A stretch of 32,000 nucleotides of DNA from an uncultured Alphaproteobacteria bacterium (GCA_963931495.1 OZ007020.1:780001-812000), one strand, 5' to 3'; shown: positions 6,565 through 20,871, numbered from the stretch's first letter. Translations and numbers: made by a program. The notes: a model not told the origin generated them from the sequence alone.

Positions 6565-7020
6565 TCAATATTTAATCGCATACATGCATTCCAACATCTT
6601 TGGAACGTTGTCTGGTTTAATACCATTTAGCAATTTGACCGAAGCAATTGAACCAAATGGCGCATAAAACTTTGGTTGTATGACGCTTTTTGTATTATAT
6701 TCATTAAATTCATAATATTTTGCGATGCAGTTATTTATCGCTGCTTCTGTATCCGCGATTGACATATGGATAAAAATATCCCATACCTGGTCAGCAATTT
6801 CATCATATTTGTAATCGTCAAACCGATAGTTGTCATAAAAGTATTCCAAAACTTGTTTTGATTGCGCCTCTATCAGGTCGGATATATTTGCAGGGAAATT
6901 ATATCTCGGGTGCGATGCGCGGTATATGTCCAGCTTTTCTTGATTTACGCCCCACGCATTATCAACGCCAGCATTTGCCGCAAACGGCAACATAAACAAC
7001 AGCAATACCAGTTTTTTCAT
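6565..7020 (-). CDS. Secreted protein; paralogue of the GH108 core of the upstream gene, lacking the catalytic EGGY motif
   Basis: Signal peptide MKKLVLLLFMLPFAANA. 'NAWGVNQEKLDIYRASHPRYNFPANISDLIEAQSKQVLEYFYDNY' aligns by eye with 'NAGITKGALDRYNTDHPNFNFPHNVRELTPEQAVQIYKEDYYDER' of ORF 7052..7909. Confidence 0.6.
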   Translation of the reverse strand: MKKLVLLLFMLPFAANAGVDNAWGVNQEKLDIYRASHPRYNFPANISDLIEAQSKQVLEYFYDNYRFDDYKYDEIADQVWDIFIHMSIADTEAAINNCIAKYYEFNEYNTKSVIQPKFYAPFGSIASVKLLNGIKPDNVPKMLECMYAIKY

Positions 7021-7051
7021 ACAGTCATTATCAAAATAATAACATTAAAAA

Positions 7052-7909
7052 TCAATATCTTTCTGTACGTGCCGTCCAACCATCGCCATATTTGTTCCAA
7101 GTTGAAAGTCCTGCCAAATATTCCAAACGCTTTTCCTTCAAAGCATCCATAAAAGCCGCTATGTCTGAATTGGGGATATTATTTAGCGCATTGATTGTGT
7201 CATTGCCCATAATACCATCAACAGCCAATTTTGTGTTTGTGTTTTCGTTTAATGTTTCCTGAACTATGCGACTGACAGCAGAAAATTTACTCATAACCCC
7301 CATATCAAAAATAGCACCAGCAATACGGTCGTTTTCTATTTCATTTATTCGTCGTTCGTCATAGTAATCTTCTTTATATATCTGAACGGCTTGTTCTGGT
7401 GTTAATTCTCGTACATTATGTGGGAAATTAAAGTTTGGGTGATCTGTATTATATCTGTCTAATGCACCCTTAGTTATTCCTGCATTGGTAGGTTGATCAA
7501 TAAGGTTCGGATTATCTACATACCCTCCTTCTTCTGCCATAGTGTGTAATATTATTTTGTCGCGTCGTTCATCACCGATAGGCTTATCGTTGTCATCAAC
7601 TTCGCATTCTTCTATCCAACAGCGACAATTAATATGATGCGGGAAATTTGGTATTTCTTCTTGGTGTTCATAAATTTTGTCCGCAAAACTGGCACAGTCA
7701 TCACACGTTTTTTCATCATCAATCGCATGCCACACCCATACAGTTCGCACAGAAATATTGCGCCCAGTTGAATCTGTAAAACTTTTTCCATACTTTTGGT
7801 TAAAATAATCCTTAACTTGTTTAGCCACATTTTCGTGATTTGGGTTATTGAGGTTGGTATAAGCATCACTTGTCATTAAGTCTTTGATGTTGTTTGGTAG
7901 TTTGTTCAT
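7052..7909 (-). CDS. Fusion protein: MuF/SPP1-gp7-type C-terminal motif plus GH108 muramidase plus PG_binding_3-like domain
   Basis: N-terminal part 'WHAIDDEKTCDDCASFADKIY...PNFPHHINCRCWIEE' is the phage head-morphogenesis MuF motif. 'AEEGGYVDNP...NAGITKG' is the GH108 catalytic region. 'KLAVDGIMGNDTINALNN' is a peptidoglycan-binding repeat. Confidence 0.75.
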   Translation of the reverse strand: MNKLPNNIKDLMTSDAYTNLNNPNHENVAKQVKDYFNQKYGKSFTDSTGRNISVRTVWVWHAIDDEKTCDDCASFADKIYEHQEEIPNFPHHINCRCWIEECEVDDNDKPIGDERRDKIILHTMAEEGGYVDNPNLIDQPTNAGITKGALDRYNTDHPNFNFPHNVRELTPEQAVQIYKEDYYDERRINEIENDRIAGAIFDMGVMSKFSAVSRIVQETLNENTNTKLAVDGIMGNDTINALNNIPNSDIAAFMDALKEKRLEYLAGLSTWNKYGDGWTARTERY

Positions 7910-7951
7910 TGTATATCCCTGGGTTGTAAAAAAATGCTATATGATGGGAAA

Positions 7952-7976
7952 TAAAAAAAGACGACCAATGTCGTCT
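7952..7976 (-). terminator. Intrinsic terminator upstream of the MuF-GH108 gene
   Basis: Minus-strand agacgac-attg-gtcgtct hairpin (7 bp) followed by a T-run. Confidence 0.6.
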
Positions 7977-7991
7977 GTTATGCGGACGCGT

Positions 7992-8019
7992 ATTATACTA
8001 TAAAAAGGTAATTTTTCAA
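7992..8019 (-). promoter_or_regulatory. Near-consensus sigma70-like promoter (TTGAAA-16-TATAAT) firing into the terminator at 7952..7976
   Basis: Read on the minus strand: ttgaaa aattacctttttatag tataat acgcgtccgcataacag. Confidence 0.5.
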
Positions 8020-8146
8020 TATATTTATGTCTTTACATCACGTCGGGGCATATACCGCATTCGGCCAGCAGCGACCCAAAATCCCATTTCACAATCATGA
8101 AATCACGAATATATTTTTGTCCCGATGTTCGTATCAATTTAATAAG

Positions 8147-8216
8147 TCCGCCCCAGAAATAAAAAACGCCCAACGGGCGATTTTTATTTATGTGCACAGG
8201 ATGCGGATGAGAACCG
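8147..8216 (+). repeat. Repeat copy B: last 9 nt of tRNA-His, terminator and conserved downstream block
   Basis: 'tccgccccagaaataaaaaacgcccaacgggcgatttttatttatgtgcacaggatgcggatgagaaccg'. It matches copies A and C except for homopolymer lengths. Confidence 0.8.
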
Positions 8217-8311
8217 GCGAGAAAGCCGTTCGAACCGCTGCAAAAAGGCGGACGAGAGTACGCCGGTTGTGCGAATGCACAATTTTGCAAGGTGATGAAG
8301 CGCAGCGAAAT

Positions 8312-8401
8312 AATCCGGTCATCCGCCCCAGAAATAAAAAAACGCCCAACGGGCGATTTTTTATTTATGTGCACAGGATGCGGATGATAACCGCGGTTCG
8401 C
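8312..8401 (+). repeat. Repeat copy C: last ~19 nt of tRNA-His, terminator and conserved downstream block
   Basis: 90 nt, near-identical to 6326..6415. Its hairpin with flanking A/T runs can also terminate the minus-strand phage operon that ends at 8417. Confidence 0.85.
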
Positions 8402-8416
8402 CGTGGCAATGTTTAA

Positions 8417-8674
8417 TTACTGTATTACCGCTGTTTTTATTAATGCAACATCTTCACGAATTGTGTCTATTTTTATCTGCAACTGGCCCAGTCCGGTTTC
8501 CAGAATCGTCGTACGATTTTCCAGCGCGGTTATGCGACTGTCGGCGCGATGCAATTCATCCAATGACGAATCTTGGCGCGCAACCCAGTATATAACCCCG
8601 GCAACAAACGCAATTAAAAACCAACTGTTCCGTAAAAAATCCAACACCCCAATTGCGCCCAGTTGTCGTTTCAT
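8417..8674 (-). CDS. Small membrane-anchored coiled-coil protein (i-spanin-like architecture)
   Basis: 85 aa with an N-terminal TM helix (WFLIAFVAGVIYWVA) followed by a heptad-rich helix. Start overlaps the stop of the upstream ORF. Function not established. Confidence 0.55.
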   Translation of the reverse strand: MKRQLGAIGVLDFLRNSWFLIAFVAGVIYWVARQDSSLDELHRADSRITALENRTTILETGLGQLQIKIDTIREDVALIKTAVIQ

Positions 8675-8865
8675 TATTTCCCCCGTTCAATCATATTTTC
8701 AATTTGGTGAACCAATGCACGTTGCGCTTCCAGACTGCGCAGTTGGGCATCTGTGGCATCCGGCCCCAGTACGCGTTCAATTGTAATTTTGCGCAAGTGC
8801 GATAATACCGCTGCGCCACTGGTCGTAGAAAATGTTCGTGCATAATTTTGTTCTGTATCTTTCAT
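8674..8865 (-). CDS. Small conserved phage protein downstream of portal (Bbp19-like by recollection)
   Basis: Start moved to the Met after SD 'aggag' (MKDTEQNYARTFSTTSGAAVLSHLRK...). The resemblance to small proteins next to podophage portals is from memory only. Confidence 0.5.
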   Translation of the reverse strand: MKDTEQNYARTFSTTSGAAVLSHLRKITIERVLGPDATDAQLRSLEAQRALVHQIENMIERGK

Positions 8866-8881
8866 TGTCATCTCCTGGGGC

Positions 8882-10105
8882 TTATAAAATTGTTTCAGCA
8901 GCAGCCATTTGCGCAATGGGTGCAATGTATTTTAATTCAGCGTCGCTGTTCAGTGTAATCCGGTCAATAATGCCACGACGGGACAAAATCTGTAATCCGC
9001 GTTCAACCAACGGACGAATAAATTCATGCAGCAATCGTCCATATGTTGCCCCCAATATGCGGACCATATCCGCGCTGCGCGCCATAATTTCTGTGGCGGT
9101 CATTTCTTTTTCAGACAGCAACCCCAGTCTGTCCGCCAGCATTGTGTGGCGTATGCGTTCACGCAAGTCTTTCAAAACAATCTGGGACACGTCAAAATTC
9201 GCCCCAGATGTTAACGGCGTCAATCCAGATGACCCAACGGCTTTGGGTATAATTGCCCCAGGTGTTAAATTAATATTAGACAAATTTATAACACCGTCAT
9301 CGTCGGCCTGCCATATGCCGGAAACAGCAATCGTTGCGTTTTTCAACACCAATTCAACAACCTTGTTTGCTGTTTTAATGTCTGGTAATGCACGCAACAC
9401 CGGCCCACGGCCGTATTGTTCGCCACTGGCCACAGACCAGCGGAATATGATGTACGGGTTTGTTTCAAATTTTCCGGTGGCAACAATGTTATTTTCTAAA
9501 TCCCCACCAACATCCATCCATGCGGTGAATTCCGTATCAACCAAACTTTGCACCAACCGCAGTGGTGTTTCAGGGTCATTTTTTATTGTATCGCGCAAAT
9601 TAGCCGGTGGGGTCCAAGATGGATATTTTTCCATGACTTCGCGCGCCGGCATGGTCGCCGTATGAAACACGGCCCCATTCAGTATCGCAATGTCACGCAT
9701 CGGAATCGCAGTAAACGAAAATGCCGATGACGCACCAATCGGATTTTCCGCCATAAACAGGCATGCTGTGCCCAGAATTATTAAATCCATATAGCACTGG
9801 TGAACAGTGGTGTAAAAATTAGAATCATTTAGATTCGCACGTAACGCCATTGTTGCAGTTTCTGCATCGGGTGATTGTGCACTTTCTGGGACCAATGAAA
9901 TCCACAATGATTCTGGCGGTGTCAGCAATGAATAAATTGATGCCGCCAAATTATCTGCGGCATCCGCAGCGGTGGCATCAAACATCATCGCCGCATCATC
10001 ATCAGCGGTTGGCATAGTGTACCGCAATGCTGCATCCCAACGATTTAACCATGGTGTACGCAAATCCAGCGCACGGCGATACATCTGTTGTAAATTTTTT
10101 TTCAT
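8882..10105 (-). CDS. Portal (head-to-tail connector) protein, T7-like family
   Basis: 407 aa. N-terminus 'YRRALDLRTPWLNRWDAALRYTMP' and 'LAASIYSLLTPPESLWISL' resemble the Head-tail_con family. Lies immediately downstream of terminase. Confidence 0.75.
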   Translation of the reverse strand: MKKNLQQMYRRALDLRTPWLNRWDAALRYTMPTADDDAAMMFDATAADAADNLAASIYSLLTPPESLWISLVPESAQSPDAETATMALRANLNDSNFYTTVHQCYMDLIILGTACLFMAENPIGASSAFSFTAIPMRDIAILNGAVFHTATMPAREVMEKYPSWTPPANLRDTIKNDPETPLRLVQSLVDTEFTAWMDVGGDLENNIVATGKFETNPYIIFRWSVASGEQYGRGPVLRALPDIKTANKVVELVLKNATIAVSGIWQADDDGVINLSNINLTPGAIIPKAVGSSGLTPLTSGANFDVSQIVLKDLRERIRHTMLADRLGLLSEKEMTATEIMARSADMVRILGATYGRLLHEFIRPLVERGLQILSRRGIIDRITLNSDAELKYIAPIAQMAAAETIL

Positions 10106-10197: not shown

Positions 10198-10226
10198 GTT
10201 ATAGTATTTCGTCTTTATACATTGAA
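10198..10226 (-). promoter_or_regulatory. Promoter-like TTCAAT-17-TATAAC overlapping the end of the terminase C-half
   Basis: Minus strand: ttcaat gtataaagacgaaatac tataac. Confidence 0.35.
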
Positions 10227-11063
10227 TTCTGTATTCGCAGAAAATGGGCGTACAGACTGGCCCAATGGACGGACCGGTGTCGGAATCGCGCATATTGCGC
10301 CGGCAACGGCATCTAAACCATCATCATGACCAACATATCCGTATGGCGCCCAACCAATCATTTCAGATATCAGTGGGGTTGACTGGATACGTCGGTGTGC
10401 GTACATACGCCCTGTCGTTAAAATCGGTTCAATGGAATCCAATATTCTTGTTTCTTTGTTGTGATGATTTGATACAGGCACAATGTGGATTCGCCGATTT
10501 TGGCGCATGGCGACATCACGCATAATTTCTGGCAATGCAACCCCCATACCATTTGTTTCCACATATATGCGCCCCAGACAATGACGGCACATAAAATCCA
10601 GCACCATTTCACACTGGCGGGCCAATGGATGTAAATCATTATCTGGAACAATCAAGTACAATACATCATGGATGAAAATATTTTTTGTCTTGTCATCCCG
10701 GTATACCAGAACACAAACACTGGCGTCTGATTTCTTGTGCGCGGTTGATGGGTCCCAGTATGCGGTTGCGCCCGTGATAACATGGTCACCAATTCGCGCC
10801 CTGCGTGAATCAAAATCATCGTCATACAGGTGCAGTGCATCTGGATCCAGGCGCGCACGTTCGGGCGCAATAAATTCCAACATCATTTGCGCTGAAAAAT
10901 ATCGGTCGCCGACCGTATGGCGCAATTCATCTATGCGCGACAGCGGAAACAATTCTGGCCATGCGGGCGTACCATCAGTGGAAATGATTGGGATTTTTAA
11001 TTCCCGATATCCGCATAAAAAAGGCGTTGAAAAAGCAAAATTTTTATATACTATATTTGACAT
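10215..11063 (-). CDS. terL: Large terminase, C-terminal half (lid plus RNase-H-like nuclease), as a separate ORF of a split gene
   Basis: 'PAWPELFPLSRIDELR...FSAQMMLEF', then the nuclease acidic motifs 'AYWDPS', 'YVETNG' and 'HDDGLDA'. No internal stops. Its ATG overlaps the divergent dnaB ATG (CATG). Confidence 0.8.
   Translation of the reverse strand: MSNIVYKNFAFSTPFLCGYRELKIPIISTDGTPAWPELFPLSRIDELRHTVGDRYFSAQMMLEFIAPERARLDPDALHLYDDDFDSRRARIGDHVITGATAYWDPSTAHKKSDASVCVLVYRDDKTKNIFIHDVLYLIVPDNDLHPLARQCEMVLDFMCRHCLGRIYVETNGMGVALPEIMRDVAMRQNRRIHIVPVSNHHNKETRILDSIEPILTTGRMYAHRRIQSTPLISEMIGWAPYGYVGHDDGLDAVAGAICAIPTPVRPLGQSVRPFSANTEFNV
11027..11054 (+). promoter_or_regulatory. Promoter for dnaB (TTGAAA-16-TACTAT); the predicted start site falls at or next to the ATG, suggesting a leaderless mRNA
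   Basis: ttgaaa aagcaaaatttttata tactat atttgac ATG. No SD before the ATG. Confidence 0.45.
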
Positions 11064-12615
11064 GGACTTTACCCCAAAAACATTACCAACAAATCTGGAA
11101 GCCGAACAGGCCGTATTGGCCGCGGTATTGATGAATAACCGCGCGTTGGAACGTGTGTCAGAATTCTTGAAACCAGAACACTTTTCACATCCGGCGCACC
11201 AAGAAATTTATAAACTGGCGGAACGCCAATTTGCCGCCGGTATACCGTTTGATATTATTACCGCAAAAAATTATCTGGACCAGCAAGGGGTGCTGGAATC
11301 CGTTGGCGGTGTTGAATACCTGACGCAATTGGCGGGGGCCGGGGCAACCGTTGTAAATGTTGAACAATATGGTCGCATCGTGTACGACAACGCAATGCGT
11401 CGCGAATTAATAAATCTGGGACAATCCATTACCGATGCGGCATATACCGAAGATTTGGATAACCCAGTATCGGCCCAGATTGAAACCGCAGAACAAAAAC
11501 TGTTTGAAATGGCGTCGTCGGGTGTTTCTGAACGCGAAGTATCGTCAATTGCAACCGCATTGCAAAGTGCCCTGCAAGAAGCAGAAATCGCGTACAAGGC
11601 CGATGGAAAACTGTCTGGGTTGACCACGGGGCTGAACGCGTTGGACAAATCAATCAGTGGGCTGCATCATTCTGACCTGATAATTATCGCCGGGCGGCCC
11701 GCGATGGGTAAAACAACACTGGCGATGAATATTGCCTTTAATGCGGCAAATGCAATTCTGTATGGGCGCGCAAATGAAAAGTACAAGGGCGCCGTCGCAT
11801 TTTTCAGTCTGGAAATGTCATCGTCACAATTGGCGGCACGTGTGCTGTCATCACAATCAAAAATTCCGGCATCGGCCATGCGCGAAGGTTCATTGACCGA
11901 TGAAGATTTCTTGAAAATGTCGCAATATTCGGCCGCAATTGGTAAAGTTCCGCTGTATATTGACGATACACCGGGCATGTCAGTACCAATGATTCGCACA
12001 CGGGCACGTCGTCTGGCGCGGAAATGTGGCGGGATTGCATTGATTGTGATTGACTATCTGCAATTAATGACATCACCAGGTGGGCGTCGTAACGATAACC
12101 GCGTCCAGGAAATTTCCGAAATAACACGCGGATTGAAAATGCTGGCCAAAGAATTGGATGTGCCGGTTATCGCCCTGTCCCAGTTGTCGCGCAGTGTTGA
12201 ATCCCGCGATGACAAGCGGCCACAATTGGCCGACCTGCGTGAATCTGGATCAATTGAACAGGACGCCGATATCGTTATGTTCACATATCGTGAAGAATAC
12301 TATCTGGAAAATCGCGACCCGTCACAACGTATTTCTGGTAACACCAATGAAAAGATTATTGAAAGTTATCAAAAACGTTTGGAACGCGCACGTGGCAAGG
12401 CCGACGTTATTATCGGAAAAAATCGTCACGGACGACCAGAAACGGTGCGATTGGCATTCTTTGGTGATTACAGTCTGTTTGACAATCTGGACGAAATGGA
12501 AAGCCGCGCAAATGGCGAATTTATTGATGCGTCGGCGCTAATTAATACCCCCGATGATATGCCTGGGATGCCGTCTGTGGATGCCGACGCAATTCCAGAT
12601 GATATGCCATTGTAA
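11062..12615 (+). CDS. dnaB: Replicative DNA helicase DnaB (517 aa) with an acidic, proline-rich C-terminal extension
   Basis: 'LPTNLEAEQAVLAAVLMNN', Walker A 'GRPAMGKTT', 'IVIDYLQLM', 'ALSQLSR', 'ESGSIEQDAD'. It also has the 'REEYYLE...' insertion that I recall as typical of alphaproteobacterial DnaB. The upstream 130 codons of the track ORF are antisense to terminase and were discarded. Confidence 0.9.
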   Translation: MDFTPKTLPTNLEAEQAVLAAVLMNNRALERVSEFLKPEHFSHPAHQEIYKLAERQFAAGIPFDIITAKNYLDQQGVLESVGGVEYLTQLAGAGATVVNVEQYGRIVYDNAMRRELINLGQSITDAAYTEDLDNPVSAQIETAEQKLFEMASSGVSEREVSSIATALQSALQEAEIAYKADGKLSGLTTGLNALDKSISGLHHSDLIIIAGRPAMGKTTLAMNIAFNAANAILYGRANEKYKGAVAFFSLEMSSSQLAARVLSSQSKIPASAMREGSLTDEDFLKMSQYSAAIGKVPLYIDDTPGMSVPMIRTRARRLARKCGGIALIVIDYLQLMTSPGGRRNDNRVQEISEITRGLKMLAKELDVPVIALSQLSRSVESRDDKRPQLADLRESGSIEQDADIVMFTYREEYYLENRDPSQRISGNTNEKIIESYQKRLERARGKADVIIGKNRHGRPETVRLAFFGDYSLFDNLDEMESRANGEFIDASALINTPDDMPGMPSVDADAIPDDMPL

Positions 12616-12681
12616 TTTTTATACTTGCCACAGGGATAAAAATTGACTAACATTTTGTCAAGAAATCCCAAGGAGATAACA

Positions 12682-13689
12682 ATGGCGCAAGAAGAAATAA
12701 TCTTTCCAAACAACATCAGAAATATTCGTCTGGCCAATGGTATGAAAATGACAGAACTGGCGCGCCAGGCAAATTTATCACTGTCGGCGGTTTCAAAAAT
12801 TGAAAAAGGCGTGCGTCGTCTGAACCAAAAGCAATTATTAAACATATGCAATATTCTGGGATGCAAACTGTCGGATATATTTATCAAGGAATCCGATGCG
12901 GTTGCCGACCAATGGCAAAATGAAATTAAACGCCGATTGAACGATAACGAAGACAGCGGACTGAAAATATTCGGCAGTGGACTGCGCAAAATTCGCCAGC
13001 AATCTGGAAAAACAATTGCCCAGGCGGCCAAAGATGCCGGTATGACATTGTCTGTGTATCATAAAATAGAAGTTGGACAACGCGAAATATATCAAAATGA
13101 AATTGAACCACTGGCTGAATCGTTTGCGTACAGCGTTGATGCAATGCTGGATAAAATTGCCAATATGTACAAGGCCGGCGAATTAACCAAACAAATTAAC
13201 AAGGTCAAAGAACGTGTAAAATCTGTGTTGGTGCCGGGCAACCCATTGTCTGGATTAGATGTACACAGCAGTTTGTATGGCGCAAAGTTGTATGACAGCG
13301 CACGTAAAAAACTGGTCCCAGTGTTTGGCGTGCCGAATGGGAAATCTATCGTATTCAAAAAAACAGACAAAACGATGATTGTTGCACCAATGCCACTGGA
13401 AGGTCACAAAGGCGTCTATGCGGTTATTCCGAACTCTAAACGATTGGGTGGTTTTATCCCAGAAAAATCATATGTGTTCGCAGATGCAGAAATTCCCGCC
13501 CAGGTTGGTGATTTGGCCGTGTGTCTGGATACGGATTTTGATGCGTTAACACCAAGTAATTCTGGGAACGCACAAATCGCGATTATACGCCAGGATTCCA
13601 AGGGCAAAATTTATGGACAAATTTCTTCACCCGAAGAAAAAATTATCGCCAAAACTATGCACAAGGTCGTAATGATTGTAATGGAATAA
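12682..13689 (+). CDS. Tandem XRE-type HTH protein with a CI/LexA (S24)-like C-terminal domain
   Basis: SD 'aggag' 6 nt before the ATG. Two HTH_XRE units ('IRNIRLANGMKMTELARQANLSLSAVSKIEKG', 'LRKIRQQSGKTIAQAAKDAGMTLSVYHKIEVG'). C-terminus 'VPVFGVPNG...GDLAVCL' has a CI-like fold pattern, but the catalytic Ser/Lys are not clearly conserved. Confidence 0.75.
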   Translation: MAQEEIIFPNNIRNIRLANGMKMTELARQANLSLSAVSKIEKGVRRLNQKQLLNICNILGCKLSDIFIKESDAVADQWQNEIKRRLNDNEDSGLKIFGSGLRKIRQQSGKTIAQAAKDAGMTLSVYHKIEVGQREIYQNEIEPLAESFAYSVDAMLDKIANMYKAGELTKQINKVKERVKSVLVPGNPLSGLDVHSSLYGAKLYDSARKKLVPVFGVPNGKSIVFKKTDKTMIVAPMPLEGHKGVYAVIPNSKRLGGFIPEKSYVFADAEIPAQVGDLAVCLDTDFDALTPSNSGNAQIAIIRQDSKGKIYGQISSPEEKIIAKTMHKVVMIVME

Positions 13690-13714
13690 AAATCATACTC
13701 AGGGGGGATAAACA

Positions 13715-14389
13715 ATGAATGCCAAGGCCAGTACAACCGCACAAAAACTGTTGAATCTGTATCGTCAAGAACATGTTATTTTTGGCGGATGGGCCGCCGT
13801 AAATCAGGTCTTTGTTGATGAAGCAACCCCAGATGTATTACACGAATTGCGTGAATTGCCCACTGGTAAAAATCTGATCAAGCATATTGAAAATCTGCGC
13901 AGTGGCAAAACGCCAATGGATTCAATTGAACGCGAATTGTTGCCATACGGTGGCATGATGGCCGAAACAGTTGCAACCGTGCCACTAACAAAAAGCGAAT
14001 GGGCCGAATTGGAATCTGGTATTAACTCATTTACAACTGACCAAGATGGACTGGAAAAAATCCAACAATTGGATGTTATAAAAAAATTCGGTGATCAATG
14101 GATGGTTGCAATTCGCGCGGCATTGTCTGAACGCCCTGAATTGCTGGAAAAATGGGCATTGGTTACAAAAACGTATCGGGCGTATTATCTGTGGAAAGTG
14201 GCCAGTGATATGTTAAATCAACCACTGTCTGAACGTGCGCGCGCACAATTACAGGCCGACATGCCAGAATACGAAACATATTTACCAATGTTTGGCGATG
14301 CCGGTGTTGAATTGTTGGAAAAATTACGTTCGTTTATTTCAACAATGACCCCAGATGCAGACACAACAGACAACCAAAATTCAATCTGA
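13715..14389 (+). CDS. Hypothetical helical protein (224 aa), last gene of the terminase-splitting cassette
   Basis: SD 'aggggg' upstream and an intact ORF. No recognisable motifs. Its stop overlaps the stop of the convergent terminase N-half by 9 nt. Confidence 0.6.
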   Translation: MNAKASTTAQKLLNLYRQEHVIFGGWAAVNQVFVDEATPDVLHELRELPTGKNLIKHIENLRSGKTPMDSIERELLPYGGMMAETVATVPLTKSEWAELESGINSFTTDQDGLEKIQQLDVIKKFGDQWMVAIRAALSERPELLEKWALVTKTYRAYYLWKVASDMLNQPLSERARAQLQADMPEYETYLPMFGDAGVELLEKLRSFISTMTPDADTTDNQNSI

Positions 14390-14980
14390 TGTGCGATAGA
14401 TTGTATCCAATGTATGTGGTGTGCCGACATAAATCATTGTGCCGGTGGGCGACAGAATAAAATCCAGTTCACGCAACCGTTCACGCAGTGTTTCGCGCTT
14501 TTGTGCCGTGTTGCTGGTATTTGGGACCTCTACATCATCACAAATTATTAAATCTGCACGCATGCCAGTGATGTTACCATGGATTCCTTGGCATACGACA
14601 GACGGTTCACGAATGCCGATTGGCCGATTAATCGTAATTCGGCCACTGGCCCATTCTTTCTTGGCCGACGGAATCAAATCTGCGCATCGCGGATGATTTT
14701 CCAGTATATGCCGTATATGCGCAACCATGCGCGATGACAGATTGTTTTCTGCGGATAAAATCAATATCCTGGTTGCAGGATGTAAATACAGCACACACGC
14801 AGCAAATATCCCAACAACTGTTGATTTGCCAGAATGTCGGAACGCCATCAGTAACCCACGATGCGGCGTATCTGTGAATACAGAAAATAAAAATTCCATT
14901 ATTTTATAATGATGTGCCGGCGTTTCCAGCCCCAGCATTTGATTCCATTCATCCAAAAACACATAAAAATCCGATAACAT
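14381..14980 (-). CDS. terL: Large terminase, N-terminal ATPase half, as a separate ORF of a split gene
   Basis: Walker A 'FRHSGKST', Walker B 'ADLIICDDVE', motif III 'YVGTP'. The ORF ends 'LDTIYRTSD*' about 12 residues after motif III. Confidence 0.85.
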   Translation of the reverse strand: MLSDFYVFLDEWNQMLGLETPAHHYKIMEFLFSVFTDTPHRGLLMAFRHSGKSTVVGIFAACVLYLHPATRILILSAENNLSSRMVAHIRHILENHPRCADLIPSAKKEWASGRITINRPIGIREPSVVCQGIHGNITGMRADLIICDDVEVPNTSNTAQKRETLRERLRELDFILSPTGTMIYVGTPHTLDTIYRTSD

Positions 14981-14993
14981 GACGACATCAACA

Positions 14994-15347
14994 TTAACTT
15001 AATAAATCATCAAATTTATCCAGTAATGATTGCAACAAGTTTGGTTTTTTAACACTGGATTGAGCCTTTTTCAGTCGTTCTGTATTTGATTTGCGCTTCT
15101 CGTCATACGGCTTTTCTGTTTCTGATTTCAGTCGTTTTAACACCGCGCCGGTTGTCATACTGCGTCCAGACACACCAGACGCACCATATTTTGCACGCTG
15201 GGTTGCCAATGTTTTTTTTACTAAATTTGTTTTTTCTTTCTCGTCAGCCGCCATATCAGACAAAATTTTTTTTCGTTCTGATTCCGCTGTTCGTTTTGAA
15301 TCTTGGTAATCCAAAACATCTATGACATCTGATACAAGTTGTCCCAT
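14994..15347 (-). CDS. Basic coiled-coil phage protein; small-terminase candidate by position only
   Basis: 117 aa, K/R/E-rich, immediately upstream of terL, which is the position of T7 gp18. No sequence motif recognised. Confidence 0.45.
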   Translation of the reverse strand: MGQLVSDVIDVLDYQDSKRTAESERKKILSDMAADEKEKTNLVKKTLATQRAKYGASGVSGRSMTTGAVLKRLKSETEKPYDEKRKSNTERLKKAQSSVKKPNLLQSLLDKFDDLLS

Positions 15348-15371
15348 AATCTCACCTTTTATTTACATTTG

Positions 15372-17087
15372 TTATACATTGTAATATCCGTACATAGATA
15401 CAGATAATACAGTTACCGGTAATTGTTCATCACTGGATATTGTCCATGGGGCATCAACAGAATTCTTTTGACATCCCAACATATTTACCGAAATATCACC
15501 ACTGTATCCATTTGCGCCATCATCAAAAATGTAATTAGGAAACTGGACACGCAATCCGTTAATAAATAATGTTTTTGTGTCCAGAACACGCGCCGCAATC
15601 TTTCTGATTTTTAATAAACTGGCGTTATGTCCAGATGCGCGAACCGGTAATCCAGATGCGGTAAATGAAAAATCATATTCCCCGGCATCGTTTAATGCCC
15701 CCGATGAAAAACGTTCCAGATAAAAATTCACACCACGCGCAACAATTACATATGTTTCAGAACCAATTGTTGCCACAGATTTGAATTGACCCTGGGTTTT
15801 ATAGCGCGCCCACCCCGAAATTCCCAATGCAGAATTTTGGTTCAATACCGCCATATCGCCATTTTCCATAACAACAAACAACTGGCGCCATTCTTCGTTA
15901 TATGACATATCTATGGGCGATTGCATCAAGTGTTTCGCCTGGGTACACAAATCATTCGCATTGTAATATTCGCCCAATTGATCCAGACTTAATTCACGAA
16001 TGTCTTTTTCGGTACTGGAAATAAATACTGTTGCCCCCTCTATTTTTTGTGGCGGCAGGTATCGTGTGGCAACACTGCCCACAGATGTGTGCTGTTTGAT
16101 ATCAACAGACGATGGGGTTAATGGCTTGCTGGATATCGCCCATTCGCCAAAATTAGTCAGAATTTGCAAGTTATCACTGCTGACCACGGTACAAATTTGT
16201 TGACGTTGTTGTGATAACAATGTTATGAAAATTGCTTCGTCATCCAGTCCGGTACCAACATCAAAATTATTATGGTGGCCAACCTTGGACATCCAAACAC
16301 CACTGGGCCATGACCGTGAACCACCAAATACCAATCTGTCTTGATGAAATGTGATACTGCACGGCCACCCACGCCGGTCACTGAATGCGGATTCATACCA
16401 ATCAGATACCGGGGCCGACGGTAAACTGTATGTGCCATTAGTATATGCATAAACAACCGTTGGACTGATGTATTCCATTATGTACCATTGTTTATTCATC
16501 AACAGTAAACGTCCGCCTTCGTTTTGCGCGGTCCAAAAATTCTTGTTGGTTGTAAATGTTGCGAAATTATTGCCTTGGCTGTTTGAAGTAACTGTAATTT
16601 TTACATCCTTGGAATCATCAAATCGCATAAACGGGATGTTTATTGACATGTCTGAATCGTTGCGTTCAAATTCAAAGTCGCTTAATTCAAATCCATTATC
16701 CGTTTTGCGCAGTATATACGGTGAATAATCTGGGTGAACGAATATCATCGTATCAAATCGCTGTGCATATTGTATTTTATCCAGTGCACTTAATGGCCAC
16801 GGCGATGGAAGATTAGAAACAACCGCCACACCATCAAAAACCAATAAATTTTTGTTGCCCAGTACCAGTAAATAATTTCCTGTTTCGCCAAATGAAAATG
16901 GAACTAAACGCCCAGATCCGCCCAGCGTATCCACAGACACCAATCCACGTCGGCGCGTCAACCCACCACCAAACATAATATCCATATTTTCCAACATGGA
17001 CAAACCATTCAAATTATCATGCGCAAAAAATTCTGGGGCAACTTCGCCATCCGCAAAAGAATTTTGCGTCTTTATAAATTCAGCCAT
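15372..17087 (-). CDS. Tail tubular protein B / nozzle (T7 gp12-like)
   Basis: 571 aa. N-terminus 'QNSFADGEVAPEFFAHDNLNGL...GGLTRRRG' is typical of podophage nozzle proteins. It follows the gp11-like gene. Confidence 0.65.
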   Translation of the reverse strand: MAEFIKTQNSFADGEVAPEFFAHDNLNGLSMLENMDIMFGGGLTRRRGLVSVDTLGGSGRLVPFSFGETGNYLLVLGNKNLLVFDGVAVVSNLPSPWPLSALDKIQYAQRFDTMIFVHPDYSPYILRKTDNGFELSDFEFERNDSDMSINIPFMRFDDSKDVKITVTSNSQGNNFATFTTNKNFWTAQNEGGRLLLMNKQWYIMEYISPTVVYAYTNGTYSLPSAPVSDWYESAFSDRRGWPCSITFHQDRLVFGGSRSWPSGVWMSKVGHHNNFDVGTGLDDEAIFITLLSQQRQQICTVVSSDNLQILTNFGEWAISSKPLTPSSVDIKQHTSVGSVATRYLPPQKIEGATVFISSTEKDIRELSLDQLGEYYNANDLCTQAKHLMQSPIDMSYNEEWRQLFVVMENGDMAVLNQNSALGISGWARYKTQGQFKSVATIGSETYVIVARGVNFYLERFSSGALNDAGEYDFSFTASGLPVRASGHNASLLKIRKIAARVLDTKTLFINGLRVQFPNYIFDDGANGYSGDISVNMLGCQKNSVDAPWTISSDEQLPVTVLSVSMYGYYNV

Positions 17088-17107
17088 ACGGTTATCCTTT
17101 GTTTTAT

Positions 17108-17626
17108 TCAGAATCGTACATTTATTAACGAAAAATCATCTATGGCATTACTGGATGTCGTTGCACTGTCAATGAATTTCGCCGATTGTAATTCCGATTC
17201 ATACAAAGCCGCCAATGTGCGAAATACAGACTGGTCGCCAATCAGTGGAATGCAAAATTCCATCGCTAATTTTGTCGCCGCCAACGATATGAAGTATGCC
17301 GGCATGGATTCAACATCAACATGAACAATGCACAATATGTTCATTTTGTCTGATGGCGATATAATTTGATTGCCAATAATTTGCCCATTGCATTTCAATA
17401 CGCGCATGCATTCAGACGGCAAGAAAAAATCACCATCGGAATCGCGCACTAAATCAAATGACTTGCATGCAAAGCGCCATGGATGAATGGACAACAGTGC
17501 GTCTATGACCGGATTAAACAAAGTTCGCGATAATTGCGCCGCCGGGGAATCTTCTTGGATTGATTGAATTGGCTTTTCCCCCAGTTTTAATAACGCCATT
17601 GAACATAAATCTATTTTTGTCGTCAT
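17108..17626 (-). CDS. Tail tubular protein A / adaptor (T7 gp11-like)
   Basis: 'IDLCSMALLKLGEKPIQSIQEDSPAAQLSRTLFNPVIDALLSIHPWRFA' parallels T7 gp11 '[44 protein letters not shown]'. Confidence 0.7.
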   Translation of the reverse strand: MTTKIDLCSMALLKLGEKPIQSIQEDSPAAQLSRTLFNPVIDALLSIHPWRFACKSFDLVRDSDGDFFLPSECMRVLKCNGQIIGNQIISPSDKMNILCIVHVDVESMPAYFISLAATKLAMEFCIPLIGDQSVFRTLAALYESELQSAKFIDSATTSSNAIDDFSLINVRF

Positions 17627-17939: not shown

Positions 17940-18776
17940 TTATTCCGACACAGTATCGTCGTCTTTGCACTGCAAGCGAACAATACCATCGTTATCAATC
18001 AGAACCGCGCCTTGGGACATACTGTTGCTGATAAAGTGTGCCGCGCGTTCGCCATGCCATGAAATATCTGTTTTTACTTCTTGGCCACATGCATGTCCGA
18101 TGCTGGTTGCATGATAGATAAAGCAATCACGTTCATCAGTATTCGCCAATGGTAATGCATTGTACATAACCCACGTTATGCCCAACCATTTTTTTGATGC
18201 ACCGCCAGATACCAGCGGCAAATCATTACCAACATAATCCGCCGATACAAATTCATCCAACGACAACAGTTCATTCCACTGGTGCACACCGACAACAGCA
18301 AAGCGACGACCATCATCTGGGACATCGTTTTGATTCATAACTTCTATGGCCGACAAAATTAAATCTTTGGTCAGGCCTGTTGAATAATCGCCCACAGATG
18401 TCGTAGATTGATTCATTGCATTGATAATTAATTCATCTGTTTTGCGACCCAGTGCATACGCACCCGCAGACGCGACAACACGACGTTCATCAACATTTGT
18501 TTTTAATTCATCCAATGCATCAACCCAATCGCCGGCATAATAGTCTTGTAATATACATTCCACCGGTTCATGATTCAGATTCATAACTGGCACAATACCA
18601 TGGCGCGATTTTGTGCTGGCGGTACCACGCCCAACCTTTTGAAATGTTGTTGACGCGCCAACGACCCCAGATTTACTGCGTACCGTTGCGCGTAATTTTG
18701 TTCCCATTTGCTGGTATGCCAAATGAACATCGGCTTCAAATTGTTTTATAAAAACATTATCAACAGAAACAGACAT
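17940..18776 (-). CDS. Major capsid protein (HK97-fold family typical of BPP-1/epsilon15-like and alphaproteobacterial podophages)
   Basis: 278 aa. 'FIKQFEADVHLAYQQMGTKLRATVR...', 'YAGDWVDALDELKTNVDER', 'AYALGRKTDELIINAM'. SD 'aaaggaaaa'. Position after the scaffold gene. Confidence 0.8.
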   Translation of the reverse strand: MSVSVDNVFIKQFEADVHLAYQQMGTKLRATVRSKSGVVGASTTFQKVGRGTASTKSRHGIVPVMNLNHEPVECILQDYYAGDWVDALDELKTNVDERRVVASAGAYALGRKTDELIINAMNQSTTSVGDYSTGLTKDLILSAIEVMNQNDVPDDGRRFAVVGVHQWNELLSLDEFVSADYVGNDLPLVSGGASKKWLGITWVMYNALPLANTDERDCFIYHATSIGHACGQEVKTDISWHGERAAHFISNSMSQGAVLIDNDGIVRLQCKDDDTVSE

Positions 18777-19003: not shown

Positions 19004-19348
19004 TTATTTTCTTTTTGCACATGCCTTTTTCGCCGCCGGTTTTTTGGCCGCAACTTTCTTTACAGCAACTTTTTTCGCAACTGGTTTTTTTGCCGCAACT
19101 TTCTTTACAGCGACTTTTTTTGCAACCGGTTTTTTGGCCGCAACTTTCTTTACAGCGACTTTTTTTGCAACCGGTTTTTTGGCCGCAACTTTTTTTGCAA
19201 CTGTTTTTTTTGCCGCAACTTTCTTTACAGCTGGTTTCTTGGCCGCTGGCTTTTTCGCAGCAACCTTTTTCACCGCCGGTTTTTTAGCAGCAGGTTTAGC
19301 AACAGGCTTTTTCGCGGCAGGTTTTGATTTGAAAATTTTGAATGGCAT
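19004..19348 (-). CDS. Lysine/alanine-rich histone H1-like (Hc/AlgP/BpH-type) DNA-binding protein
   Basis: 114 aa made almost entirely of AAKKP/VAKKV repeats. SD 'aaggagag'. Has its own terminators. The plus-strand ORFs over the same repeats are mirror artefacts. Confidence 0.8.
   Translation of the reverse strand: MPFKIFKSKPAAKKPVAKPAAKKPAVKKVAAKKPAAKKPAVKKVAAKKTVAKKVAAKKPVAKKVAVKKVAAKKPVAKKVAVKKVAAKKPVAKKVAVKKVAAKKPAAKKACAKRK
19047..19181. repeat. Tandem 45-bp DNA repeats (three near-identical units, flanked by degenerate copies) inside the H1-like gene
   Basis: ggccgcaactttctttacagcRactttttttgcaaccggtttttt repeated head to tail. Each unit encodes a 15-aa AAKKPVAKKVAVKKV block. Confidence 0.8.
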
Positions 19349-19453: not shown

Positions 19454-20110
19454 TTACGAATACAATTTTTTAAATCCATTTTCAATTTTGCGAACGTATT
19501 CTGGATCCATATCACGCCAATATTTTGGGTCACGCATCATGCGACGCAATTCATCATCTGATAAAATTTTTTCACCACCATCATCGGTTTGTACGGTTGG
19601 TTCCATTGACTGCATCATTTGATATATGCCTTGGATTCCCTGGGGTGACGAGCACATTGCATCAAATGCATCATGCGGTAAATATTTTTCACCAAATGTA
19701 TTTATTGCACGTAATGCATCATACATTTTTTCGGTACCACCAAAAAAATTTTTTAATTCTGAAATTGCATCTGATTCATTTTTTATTTCAAATAAATCTG
19801 ATAACACAGGTGATAAAAATTCATTCGCAATATCATAAATTTTTTCAACTTGGGATGATGTTAAACCAATTTCTAAAAATTTTTCACGCAACGAATCGTC
19901 ATCAAACATTGGGCATGTTGGATATTCATTTGCATTTTCTGGCACGCCAATTGCGCGATTAAATTTTGCACGTAATTCAGAATCTGATTCAGACGTTGGT
20001 ACAGAAATCATTGTGCCAATCTTTTTTTCTAGTTCTGTATACGATTTTAATAACGCATCTGTATTTAACGTACCATCTTTATTCAGAAATTTTTCTGGAA
20101 TTTTTTCCAT
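19454..20110 (-). CDS. Capsid scaffolding protein (putative)
   Basis: Start at the internal ATG after SD 'aaaggaaag' (MEKIPEKFLNKDGTLNTDALLKSYTELEKKIG...). Acidic, helical, upstream of the capsid gene. The N-terminal motif recalls podophage scaffold proteins. Confidence 0.6.
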   Translation of the reverse strand: MEKIPEKFLNKDGTLNTDALLKSYTELEKKIGTMISVPTSESDSELRAKFNRAIGVPENANEYPTCPMFDDDSLREKFLEIGLTSSQVEKIYDIANEFLSPVLSDLFEIKNESDAISELKNFFGGTEKMYDALRAINTFGEKYLPHDAFDAMCSSPQGIQGIYQMMQSMEPTVQTDDGGEKILSDDELRRMMRDPKYWRDMDPEYVRKIENGFKKLYS

Positions 20111-20300
20111 TTTTCTTTCCTTTGGTTTCACTGGATTTGCGCAGAAAATAAATTCCGCCAAACATAAATATTGATTGCATCATTGTGAATACATCTGTGT
20201 CGCCCACCATATACGCGCCAACCGCAGACAGTATTCCAATGCCTGATATAATATACGTCCGGTGACCTGATAAAAATCCACCACTGATAATTTTGTTCAT
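20079..20300 (-). CDS. Holin-like small membrane protein
   Basis: MNKIISGGFLSGHRTYIISGIGILSAVGAYMVGD...MMQSIFMFGGIYFLRK followed by a basic tail. Two TM segments. Lies directly after the lysin gene. Confidence 0.5.
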   Translation of the reverse strand: MNKIISGGFLSGHRTYIISGIGILSAVGAYMVGDTDVFTMMQSIFMFGGIYFLRKSSETKGKKNGKNSRKISE

Positions 20301-20317: not shown

Positions 20318-20728
20318 TTACAGATAAAATAAAAATCCGTCTATGTCGGCGATATATCCGCGTGCGGTTGCCCATGACGGAATCACATCAGAACGATGAA
20401 AGCATGTCGCACCATAACACATATCACCCAACGTGCCGTTCAGCATTCTGTGCACAACACGCAGACACATTTGAAATCCACAATTTATTACATCCACAGA
20501 AATTAATTTATTATCTGGTGATTCTGGACGTAACACATCAAACAAATTAACATCTGATATAACATCATATAAATCGCGTCCAGTAACACGTGCATTATTT
20601 GCAACCAGTGATGCCATCATTTCAACCAATCGTAATGATTGCGCATGCGTTTGTGCATATAATATACGTGCGATTTTATATTCCAGCAATTTCGTTTCAT
20701 CTGGATTTTTTATCAATGTTAATTGCAT
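20318..20728 (-). CDS. SleB/CwlJ-type cell-wall hydrolase (phage endolysin-like)
   Basis: 'ARILYAQTHAQSLRLVEMMASLVANNAR' and 'GATCFH' match the Hydrolase_2 pattern (ARTIYGEARGE...NR; GATHFH). Confidence 0.7.
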   Translation of the reverse strand: MQLTLIKNPDETKLLEYKIARILYAQTHAQSLRLVEMMASLVANNARVTGRDLYDVISDVNLFDVLRPESPDNKLISVDVINCGFQMCLRVVHRMLNGTLGDMCYGATCFHRSDVIPSWATARGYIADIDGFLFYL

Positions 20729-20751
20729 GTTGTATATTCTCTTGCAGTTAT

Positions 20752-20778
20752 AAAAAAAAAGCGCACAACAATGTGCGC
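20752..20778 (-). terminator. Intrinsic terminator t2 immediately upstream of the lysin gene
   Basis: Minus strand gcgcaca-ttgt-tgtgcgc, followed by a run of about 9 T. Confidence 0.7.
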
Positions 20779-20785
20779 GGTCATG

Positions 20786-20816
20786 AAATAAAAAATCCGC
20801 CGAAAAATTTCGCGGA
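20786..20816 (-). terminator. Intrinsic terminator t1
   Basis: Minus strand tccgcg-aaattttt-cggcgga (bulged stem), followed by tttttta ttt. Confidence 0.5.
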
Positions 20817-20842
20817 CAAATTTATTCCTGTTTATGCGTGTC

Positions 20843-20871
20843 AGTATATCATATTTTGATGTAAAAGTCAA
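20843..20871 (-). promoter_or_regulatory. Near-consensus promoter (TTGACT-17-TATACT) at the head of the phage-derived operon
   Basis: Minus strand: ttgact tttacatcaaaatatga tatact gacacgcataaacagg. Located between the birA stop and t1/t2. Confidence 0.55.

Follow-up and report, generated by a model that had tools for sequence, protein, structure and literature searches.

The gene for the large terminase subunit (terL) of a podovirus-like cluster in an uncultured Alphaproteobacteria bacterium is divided into two open reading frames (ORFs) that lie 3.3 kb apart, with three genes on the opposite strand between them, and both parts are kept by purifying selection. The DNA that we analyzed (the window) covers 32,000 nt (GCA_963931495.1 OZ007020.1:780001-812000). 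The same arrangement is found across the 'Ca. Enterousia'/Rs-D84 clade of gut Alphaproteobacteria, uncultured organisms with genomes <1 Mb (PMC12306168). We think it fairly likely that terL underwent an ancient fission in a domesticated cluster and that its two products come together non-covalently as a working terminase.

The N-terminal half, terL-N (14381-14980, minus strand; 199 aa), corresponds to the RecA-like core of a T7-type TerL ATPase, with a Walker A motif (FRHSGKST), a Walker B motif followed by the catalytic Glu (DLIICDDVE) and a C-motif (GTPH). The C-terminal half, terL-C (10215-11063, minus strand; 282 aa), comprises a predicted β-strand (LKIPI), lid-like helices and an RNase H-like nuclease with its acidic triad (YWDPS, ETNG, DDGLDA), and matched the Pfam families Terminase-T7_RNaseH-like and Terminase_6C. 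On the PHROG 38 profile (terminase large subunit), the N-half covered positions 271-459 (E 6e-41) and the C-half positions 469-710 (E 2e-36). On NCBIfam termin_lrg_T7 (NF033889), the N-half covered positions 1-190 of 500 (226.8 bits against a cut-off of 150) and the C-half positions 231-500. terL-N also aligned with residues 19-211 of the T7-type TerL chains 4bij and 8dgc. Based on these matches, we assign the halves to the N- and C-parts of one T7-type TerL, and not to unrelated families. The original prediction, which was made from the sequence alone, had the positions of all ORFs, the shared strand and the order of the halves right.

No residues are missing at the break, although a handful had been predicted to be lost. 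The halves (199 and 282 aa) sum to the length of uninterrupted relatives (481-505 aa). Residues 5-198 of the N-half aligned with residues 6-199 of one such relative (P0121) and residues 12-282 of the C-half with its residues 207-498, leaving 1 residue unaligned at the broken end of the N-half and 11 at that of the C-half. As in other genes in pieces, the two ORFs together span the whole protein of one ancestral gene. The N-half had been described as an intact ATPase ORF; instead, the ATPase domain itself is broken, in a variable loop that lies between its Walker A/B core and its strand-plus-lid region. A break at the ATPase/nuclease border was ruled out, since the predicted strand and lid helices sit on the C-half ahead of the nuclease.

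For AlphaFold2 modeling, the halves were artificially fused into one chain, which places the association of separate halves outside the reach of the model. The joined model had a pLDDT of 90, with the junction in a 32-residue coil where pLDDT falls to 63, and the strand and lid helices followed the junction and preceded the nuclease. It matched TerL structures, and the P74-26 ATPase domain (~250 residues) aligned with it over ~285 alignment columns, which extends beyond the break. The TerL lid is thought to be a force-generating lever that touches neighboring subunits (PMC5389665), so severing it from the core is mechanically awkward and counts against a two-polypeptide enzyme.

As predicted, the gap is filled by three plus-strand genes. 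The first is dnaB (11062-12615; 517 aa; Pfam DnaB and DnaB_C), which encodes a replicative DNA helicase. It scored 623.8 bits on NCBIfam NF006606 (equivalog cut-off 540) and 415.7 on the phage_DnaB model, under the cut-off of 498.65; by these scores, we class it as a cellular-type and not a phage helicase. The second gene (12643-13689) encodes a double XRE-type helix-turn-helix (HTH) regulator, whose C-terminal domain has an unknown fold. Translation probably begins at M14 (12682), which would give 335 aa, and the mean column identity of the protein was 87% across 25 species. The label 'S24-like' originally given to this protein is not supported, as no profile search returned an S24 match. The last gene (13715-14389) is a conserved ORF for a 224-aa protein of unknown function. 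Profile searches, including PHROG and NCBIfam, found no family match for it, and its AlphaFold2 model (all-alpha, pLDDT 81.5) had no Foldseek match in the PDB. Its homologues form 1268 clusters; the members of the 120 listed clusters were all 215-233 aa long with at least 72% identity, and each homologue locus checked belongs to the 'Ca. Enterousia'/Rs-D84 clade.

Cassette and terminase genes overlap at both junctions, in the way that had been predicted. On the left, the start codons of dnaB (11062-11064, plus strand) and terL-C (11063-11061, minus strand) share one CATG. On the right, the stops of terL-N (14381-14383) and the 224-aa gene (14387-14389) are convergent and the ORFs overlap by 9 nt; no terminator was found at this junction. 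A promoter scan placed the dnaB promoter (TTGAAA, 16-nt spacer, TACTAT; 11027-11054, plus strand) within terL-C codons 4-13, on the opposite strand, so dnaB in this window would be leaderless or nearly so. The promoter motif AAAAAAGGCGTTGAAAAAGCA...ATATAC.AT was kept in 74/74 loci, and synonymous codon entropy in codons 1-16 of terL-C was 0.06-0.2 versus a gene mean of 1.29. No conserved promoter was found for terL-C itself, and terL-N and terL-C now lie in different transcription contexts. Both observations count against a two-polypeptide enzyme.

We compared 122 complete loci, 75 from genomes and 47 from IMG/VR, each with an N-half identity of at least 71%. Every one had the N-half/cassette/C-half layout, with a gap of 3285-3459 nt (3.3-3.5 kb) and with both halves adjoining portal and tail genes; none of them was free of the cassette. 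T7-type TerL is typically one polypeptide of ~480-590 aa, and terL was contiguous in all 36 relatives with an N-half identity ≤56%. The split is old, not a recent accident, and dates to the ancestor of the clade.

Both halves have remained intact since then. The terL-N ORF was intact in 83 loci (192-214 aa), and the terL-C ORF was intact and began with ATG in 73/74 (279-287 aa); the one exception among complete loci had a C-half ORF of only 97 aa. The stop of terL-N and the ATG of terL-C are themselves conserved. The catalytic motifs (Walker A, Walker B, GTPH and the three acidic motifs) were invariant or nearly so across 73-83 orthologues. With synonymous sites near or at saturation (median dS ~0.8-1.2 for the closest pairs and ~1.9 for all pairs), dN/dS was 0.06-0.08 for terL-N and 0.06-0.14 for terL-C, comparable with the values for portal and capsid (structural genes overall, 0.04-0.15), and lowest among the genes measured for dnaB (0.03-0.06). 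Unsaturated pairs gave 0.057 for the N-half, 0.063 for the C-half, 0.028 for DnaB, 0.038 for portal and 0.044 for capsid. No conserved ORF in another frame overlapping the halves was seen that could be the source of this signal. Inactivating substitutions with dN/dS near 1, which had been raised as a possible outcome, are not what these genes have. Given its low dN/dS and a genome <1 Mb, this may be the only copy of dnaB in the genome.

The history that we favor begins with a podovirus-like cluster that would have become domesticated and vertically inherited in the 'Ca. Enterousia'/Rs-D84 chromosome. In the clade ancestor, a T7-type terL would have undergone fission in the variable surface loop that separates the motif-III strand from the strand-plus-lid segment leading to the nuclease. 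The gap would since have been held by a three-gene cellular operon in inverse orientation, each half would have gained its own stop or start codon, and purifying selection has retained both. The halves most likely reassemble non-covalently (fragment complementation) into a working terminase. We infer two-polypeptide assembly, packaging activity and particle production; of the three options in the original prediction, the two-polypeptide enzyme appears best supported.

A precedent comes from Aeromonas phage Aeh1, in which nrdA is split by mobE into NrdA-a and NrdA-b and the products reassemble without splicing (PMC3045599). By analogy, the same mechanism may operate here; in both cases inserted DNA fragments an enzyme gene into two ORFs, each with new terminal residues. 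Unlike in Aeh1, the insert is not a mobile endonuclease gene but an inverse-orientation operon for a cellular-type helicase, an HTH regulator and an all-alpha protein of unknown function, and the split is fixed across a whole bacterial clade instead of occurring in one phage.

A second TerL lineage (L088/L089) is also encoded in two ORFs (210 aa and 271 or 284 aa, ATGGGTGA overlap). It is cut in the same variable loop, past the TIY motif, and it too has a chromosomal setting among housekeeping genes. Unlike terL here, it has no insert, its ORFs are translationally coupled, and the N-half identity is only 43%. Because this lineage groups with uninterrupted TerLs and not with our clade in an unbootstrapped NJ tree, its split is probably an independent fission, which suggests that the loop tolerates being cut. 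The idea that relatives might encode terL as two adjacent genes thus holds for this distant lineage and not for the clade itself.

The halves could instead be conserved without forming a joint terminase, having been exapted for separate cellular roles (such as an ATPase role for the N-half and a nuclease or portal-binding role for the C-half), or the cluster could make DNA-free particles. We regard this as unlikely. It would fit the separate transcription contexts, the loss of the covalent link between core and lid, the different rates of the halves (mean amino-acid distance 0.21 for the N-half and 0.36 for the C-half) and the lack of a small terminase in Pfam, PHROG and NCBIfam profile searches. 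Against it, each catalytic motif of both activities is conserved, the halves still sit beside portal and tail genes in every complete locus, the strand and lid on the C-half would be functionless without the ATPase core, and the second split lineage keeps its halves translationally coupled.

The halves are surrounded by a ~12-kb podovirus-like cluster that encodes scaffold, capsid, tail tube A and B, TerL and portal, all on the minus strand. The stretch 20729-20871 holds a near-consensus promoter (TTGACT and TATACT separated by a 17-nt spacer, with an upstream TG), which is conserved in 66 loci, and two hairpin-plus-U-run terminators (fold z = -3.06) that lie between the promoter and the first structural gene. 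The genes that follow encode a 136-aa cell-wall-hydrolase-like protein (20318-20728), a T7-type scaffold (19454-20161), a Lys/Ala-rich HC2-like protein (19004-19348) and the major capsid protein (17940-18776); tail tubular protein A (172 aa), tail tubular protein B (nozzle, 571 aa) and a 117-aa protein occupy 14994-17626, upstream of terL-N. The portal, or head-to-tail connector (8882-10105; PF12236, E 1e-80), lies directly downstream of terL-C and is syntenic in all loci, and a Bbp19-like 83-aa protein and an 85-aa protein (8417-8925) form the conserved cluster end. This neighborhood, together with the family, the ASCE ATPase motifs and the nuclease triad, is that of T7-type TerL (gp19; 4BIJ, 8DGC), from which the locus differs in having two polypeptides cut within the ATPase domain, with cellular genes between, and in having no recognized small terminase. 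Neither that gene nor a holin was recognized in the cluster, and a 182-aa tail-fibre-like gene present in 63/79 relatives is absent from the window; these gaps count against a two-polypeptide enzyme.

Housekeeping genes flank the cluster (frr, uppS, cdsA, rseP and bamA on one side; lplA, lpxI and priA on the other), and the original description of a domesticated phage cluster inside a bacterial chromosome was borne out. It is quite improbable that the cluster is a mobile prophage or satellite that is, or until recently was, active, with the split as a trait of that element. IMG/VR does list this locus and ~50 relatives as viral genomes, and a CI-like HTH+S24 repressor and a holin are present in related elements whose terL is uninterrupted. 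However, the IMG/VR entries are fragments, many of them starting exactly at the capsid start codon; lplA and the neighboring 149-aa gene are syntenic across species; the 32-kb window has no integrase, phage polymerase or replication module, and the locus no att repeats; a cellular-type dnaB sits within the cluster; and the pairwise divergence of the phage-derived genes follows that of DnaB (Spearman 0.31-0.79).

Plain inactivation, in which the insertion destroyed the terminase and its remnants persist only as flank and overlap of the essential dnaB operon, is very improbable. The dnaB promoter over terL-C codons 1-16 and the overlapping stops of terL-N and the 224-aa gene do leave short stretches of terL constrained by the cassette. 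But this overlap covers only ~50 nt, the other 1.4 kb is intact in all complete loci but one, dN/dS is low despite near-saturated synonymous sites, and the strongly reduced genomes of the clade (PMC12306168) make the keeping of useless DNA unlikely. The suggestion that a helicase is locked inside a domesticated cluster stands, and its other part, an inactivated terminase, does not.

The gene might also be rejoined on demand, by programmed excision or inversion, RNA splicing or a split intein. The skin and nifD elements are developmentally excised intervening elements, with their own recombinase and flanking repeats. Fractured genes with split inteins, whose broken ends carry intein fragments, have also been described (PMC2677866). 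Both kinds share with terL a multi-kb insert and collinear halves, and a loop-out of the cassette is conceivable. We give rejoining almost no credence, because Pfam, PHROG and NCBIfam profiles found no recombinase in the cassette, the junctions have no direct or inverted repeats, a profile search found no Hint/intein match, no Rfam intron family matched even at E 1, the full-length halves leave no space for intein fragments, the N-half stop and the C-half ATG are conserved, and excision would delete dnaB. Lacking intein, intron, homing endonuclease, transposase and recombinase, the locus fits none of the usual routes of terminase interruption, as had been predicted.

Returning to the two-polypeptide reading, both halves are kept intact by selection, so the enzyme most likely still works as two separate proteins. 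The cluster, which is set among housekeeping genes and lacks both an integrase and a replication module, is a candidate gene transfer agent (GTA). Like RcGTA, BaGTA and the podovirus-like FpGTA of Faecalibacterium (PMC12946183), it is a chromosomal, phage-derived set of head, tail and packaging genes that is vertically inherited under purifying selection, as judged by synteny with host flanks, dN/dS and distances tracking DnaB. Its structural genes are of the T7-like podovirus type, unrelated to those of RcGTA and BaGTA, and it differs from known GTAs in its split terminase and in its host, an uncultured lineage with a reduced genome. With the dnaB promoter inside the first 16 codons of terL-C, an essential gene and a packaging gene are physically interlocked. 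Because of this embedded promoter and the terminator-free convergent junction, expression of the helicase and the repressor may be coupled to particle production.

The large terminase (TerL) is encoded by two minus-strand ORFs, terL-N (14381..14980, 199 aa) and terL-C (10215..11063, 282 aa), just as originally predicted, and both matched the same terminase families. The PHROG 38 profile was matched at positions 271-459 by the N-half and 469-710 by the C-half. The NCBIfam model termin_lrg_T7 was covered at positions 1-190 and 231-500, respectively. Among Pfam domains, Terminase_6N was found in the N-half, and Terminase-T7_RNaseH-like and Terminase_6C in the C-half. Residues 19-211 of the T7-type TerL chains 4bij and 8dgc align with the N-half. 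Searched as a single sequence, the C-half had no match in the PDB; a match required a profile built from the joined alignment.

A search of 1.8 billion representative proteins yielded uninterrupted relatives of 480-505 aa that are ~50% identical to the N-half. In one of these (P0121, 498 aa), residues 6-199 correspond to N-half residues 5-198 and residues 207-498 to C-half residues 12-282; the alignment of a second, P0124, agrees. Because the two halves sum to 481 aa, the whole protein is accounted for, and the handful of residues once thought to be missing at the junction are not missing.

A multiple alignment places the break in a stretch that varies in both length and sequence, downstream of the conserved GTPH..TIY motif. 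We built a profile from the joined halves and 25 uninterrupted homologs and aligned it to the terminase of the T7-like phage PhiV-1 (8dgc). The break fell at approximately residues 211-220 of that chain, with C-half residues ~30-70 mapping to 262-295. AlphaFold2 modeled the artificially joined halves with a pLDDT of 90 and a pTM of 0.77. The junction lies within a 32-residue coil (187-218), where pLDDT drops to 63, and is followed by a strand (219-223, LKIPI), helices (240-259) and a nuclease sheet starting at about residue 277. Foldseek matched the joined model to TerL structures, and the isolated ATPase domain of P74-26 (~250 residues) aligned over ~285 alignment columns, far beyond residue 199. 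Since profile alignment, model and Foldseek all extend the ATPase past the break, the cut falls inside the ATPase domain, with the Walker A, Walker B and C-motif core on one side and a strand plus the lid on the other. The N-half is thus not the intact ATPase ORF it had been taken for. The TerL lid caps the active site, touches the neighboring subunit and has been proposed as the lever that moves DNA (PMC5389665).

The split is ancient and found throughout one clade. Homologs of the N-half form 889 clusters; the best 120 of the 889 are all 198-221 aa, lie on contigs as long as 917 kb and, where named, belong to 'Candidatus Enterousia' or to Alphaproteobacteria MAGs. A scan of GTDB species representatives gave 80 loci, drawn from MAGs of ruminant, chicken, human and other guts, and IMG/VR gave ~50 more, one of which is the window's own locus cut precisely at the capsid start codon. 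At N-half identities of at least 71% (75 genome and 47 IMG/VR loci), the order is terL-N, the opposite-strand 224-aa, HTH and DnaB genes, terL-C and portal, with a gap of 3285-3459 nt. At identities of 56% or less, 36 loci have a contiguous terL. No locus at or above 71% was found to lack the cassette. The exact N-half sequence of the window also occurs on a contig of 968,759 bp; Rs-D84/Enterousia genomes are smaller than 1 Mb (PMC12306168).

Inactivation of the terminase, one of the explanations originally offered, does not fit these loci. The N-half ORF is intact in 83 loci, and the C-half ORF is intact, ATG-started and 279-287 aa long in 73 of 74. Little or no variation is seen at the Walker A lysine, the acidic residues of Walker B, GTPH or the three nuclease motifs (YWDPS, ETNG and DDGLDA). 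Across all pairs, for which dS is saturated, NG86 dN/dS was 0.078 for the N-half, 0.143 for the C-half, 0.056 for DnaB, 0.062 for the capsid and 0.060 for the portal. Over 20 closer pairs (dS ~0.8-1.2), the values were 0.057, 0.063, 0.028, 0.044 and 0.038 in the same order. Intact ORFs, conserved motifs and low dN/dS together rule out plain decay. DnaB pairwise distances correlate with those of the phage-derived genes. We regard the split as almost certainly real, ancient and under selection.

The cassette between the halves consists of three plus-strand genes. The first is dnaB (11062..12615), whose product passes the cellular equivalog NF006606 (623.8 vs. a cut-off of 540) and fails the phage_DnaB model. 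Its best 'phage' match, MT835812.1, was discarded as a mislabeled bacterial fragment carrying MurJ, MFS and YgjP genes. The second gene (12643..13689), according to profile searches, encodes two XRE-type HTH domains, and no other protein of the locus is as conserved as its product (87% mean column identity). The 'S24-like' label it had carried is not supported: no S24 signal emerged from Pfam applied to the C-terminal 169 aa, from a profile search of the PDB or from BLASTP comparison with the CI-like repressor of a related element. Its listed TTG start (12643-12681) is probably wrong, as most orthologs have 335 aa, beginning with the Met that corresponds to 12682. The third gene (13715..14389) encodes a 224-aa protein that AlphaFold2 modeled as all-alpha; family searches and Foldseek of that model gave no match, leaving the idea of a Q-like antiterminator unsupported.

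Both junctions in the window are as first described: on the left, dnaB and terL-C share a single CATG at their starts (11061-11064), and on the right the convergent stops overlap by 9 nt. Across loci the right-hand ORFs also overlap, the shared stretch being 4 nt in 51 of 82, and a terminator scan found none at this junction. Upstream of dnaB, the motif AAAAAAGGCGTTGAAAAAGCA..TTTTT.ATATAC.AT is conserved in 74 of 74 loci. A promoter scan predicted a dnaB promoter there (11027-11054; TTGAAA, 16-nt spacer, TACTAT). The motif is the opposite strand of terL-C codons 4-17, where synonymous codon entropy falls to 0.06-0.2 vs. a terL-C gene mean of 1.29, the strongest dip of the locus. The conserved motif and the entropy dip place the dnaB promoter within the newly acquired 5′ end of terL-C. 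Because the predicted −10 box in the window ends 7 nt before the dnaB ATG, dnaB is probably leaderless here; in about half of the species, the spacer is instead 19-25 nt with an AAGGA motif.

The surrounding cluster is of phage type. On the minus strand, a gene for a cell-wall-hydrolase-like 136-aa protein is followed by a T7-type scaffold, a Lys/Ala-rich HC2-like protein, the major capsid protein, tail tubular proteins A and B and a 117-aa protein. Then come terL-N, the cassette and terL-C, followed, again on the minus strand, by the portal, a Bbp19-like protein and an 85-aa protein. One flank holds frr, uppS, cdsA, rseP, bamA, tRNA-Ala and tRNA-His, and the other lplA, genes for a VirB11-like ATPase and an FKBP, lpxI, a tRNA methyltransferase gene and priA. 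No integrase, phage polymerase or recognizable small terminase was found within the 32-kb window. Because a phage-type cluster sits between housekeeping genes with neither integrase nor phage polymerase, its gene content fits the profile of a domesticated element and makes it a candidate gene transfer agent (GTA). The Enterousia and gut GTA literature we searched does not mention it. FpGTA of Faecalibacterium has been described as the first podovirus-like GTA (PMC12946183). We rejected an identity with BaGTA of Bartonella, whose terminase is a single gene of 1344 nt and whose gene content differs; the window comes from Enterousia/Rs-D84.

Several other features of the cluster were recorded. 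Of 79 related loci, 63 carry, between the 117-aa gene and terL-N, an ORF of 182 aa (9472-10020 in related locus L001) that overlaps the terL-N start and whose N-terminus resembles tail-fiber adaptor domains; it is wholly absent from the window (14981-14993) and from 15 other species. The HC2-like gene (19004-19348, minus strand) encodes a histone-H1/HC2-like, Lys/Ala-rich protein of 114 aa between scaffold and capsid, and its DNA contains internal repeats (CGGTTTTTTGGCCG at 19037, 19127 and 19172); in relatives, a low-complexity ORF of about the same length occupies this place. Positions 6565-8416 form a segment not present in the related loci fetched. It encodes a 151-aa protein with a signal-peptide-like N-terminus and a 285-aa GH108 lysozyme that also has a PG_binding_3 domain and, at its N-terminus, a Mu-F-like piece, and its non-coding stretch contains the hairpin CGCCCAACGGGCG twice, 176 nt apart.

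How the gene came to be split was approached through its junctions and relatives. The locus fits none of the usual routes of interruption, as had been stated: a repeat search found no att-like repeats at the cassette junctions, Rfam gave no intron match at the gathering threshold or at E 1, and profile searches found no recombinase or intein features at the split. In uninterrupted relatives, the order is portal, Bbp19-like gene, scaffold, capsid, tube A, tube B, a variable stretch, terL and hydrolase, so the Enterousia cluster has also moved its portal block and hydrolase gene. Adjacent terL halves do occur in two relatives, L088 (10001-11480) and L089 (10001-11441), as two ORFs (210 aa and either 284 or 271 aa) with a ATGGGTGA stop/start overlap and no insert, broken at the same loop as in Enterousia. 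However, their identity is only 43%, and in an unbootstrapped neighbor-joining tree they group with uninterrupted TerLs rather than with Enterousia. Because they share the break site yet group elsewhere, these alignments mark the loop as a permissive fission site, probably hit twice. In this different bacterium, the ORFs lie among the housekeeping genes ftsY, miaB, dapF, hemC, hemD, tsaD and alaS, with no capsid gene within 10 kb; one of the two contigs is 1.47 Mb long. An apparent third split (P0143, locus L087, 317-1237 of a single 1.2-kb contig) was rejected as an in-frame stop in the conserved HSY*TIY, either a nonsense mutation or an assembly error.

Other members of the element family differ in setting. 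L164 (686-5381), with an uninterrupted terL, has a divergent CI-like HTH and Peptidase_S24 repressor upstream and a hydrolase, a 'GTA_holin_3TM' family holin and then the portal downstream; it is possibly a small temperate podophage or a further GTA-like element. In L085 (GCA_013572995.1, 439-9254), a cluster comprising capsid, tail and lysozyme genes plus an uninterrupted terL directly abuts topA and argG, which suggests that other chromosomal, possibly domesticated, copies exist. Three public 'Bacteriophage sp.' or viral-genome records (L091, MT835812.1; L092, MT838907.1; L093, IMGVR_UViG_3300029904_000356) include a plain bacterial fragment (MurJ, MFS, DnaB) as well as fragments of this family, and L093 has 99-100% protein identity to the window genes from capsid through the Bbp19-like gene.

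Overall, the original observation is confirmed with corrections and its interpretation partly supported. We propose that a T7-type terL in a candidate GTA was broken by an ancient insertional fission and became interlocked with the dnaB operon of the clade. The cassette would either have caused the break or have moved between halves already separate. Judging from sequence, we think it reasonably likely that the two TerL products form a working terminase. The genes-in-pieces NrdA of phage Aeh1 is likewise a split gene, and its products reassemble without splicing (PMC3045599), as we propose for TerL here. Our literature search found no precedent for a split TerL.

It is also conceivable, though we consider it improbable, that the split is part of a commitment switch and not merely tolerated. 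At 20729-20871 (minus strand), the structural operon has a near-consensus promoter (TTGACT, 17-nt spacer, TATACT, upstream TG), conserved in 66 loci/species, followed by two tandem hairpin-plus-U-run terminators that precede the first structural ATG. This strong promoter with two leader terminators points to antitermination control. The arrangement resembles a lambda PR′/tR′-style antitermination leader, or a small RNA gene. Further strong terminators flank the capsid gene. In such a switch, the structural genes would be expressed from this one promoter, and transcription would pass antisense across the 224-aa gene, the HTH gene and dnaB before arriving at terL-C and the portal. Read-through would be needed because the minus strand showed no strong terminator-like site from terL-N to terL-C, and a conserved promoter of terL-C could not be detected within dnaB, where no window of synonymous constraint is comparable to that of the dnaB promoter. 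Production of complete terminase and portal would then collide with, and silence, dnaB and the regulator. No operator motif common to the dnaB and structural promoters was found.

If the halves do form an active motor, the locus is a natural experiment in which a viral packaging ATPase tolerates a break between its nucleotide-binding core and the lid, the presumed source of the power stroke, and its conservation across hundreds of lineages would offer a ready-made test system for models of force generation. If the switch were real, making particles and arresting replication would be linked in the producing cell. An essential replication gene inside a phage-derived operon, with its promoter within terL-C, is unusual and may stabilize or regulate the domesticated element. 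The locus indicates that an abundant, uncultured group of Alphaproteobacteria from animal guts, with reduced genomes, carries a T7-like candidate GTA not described before.
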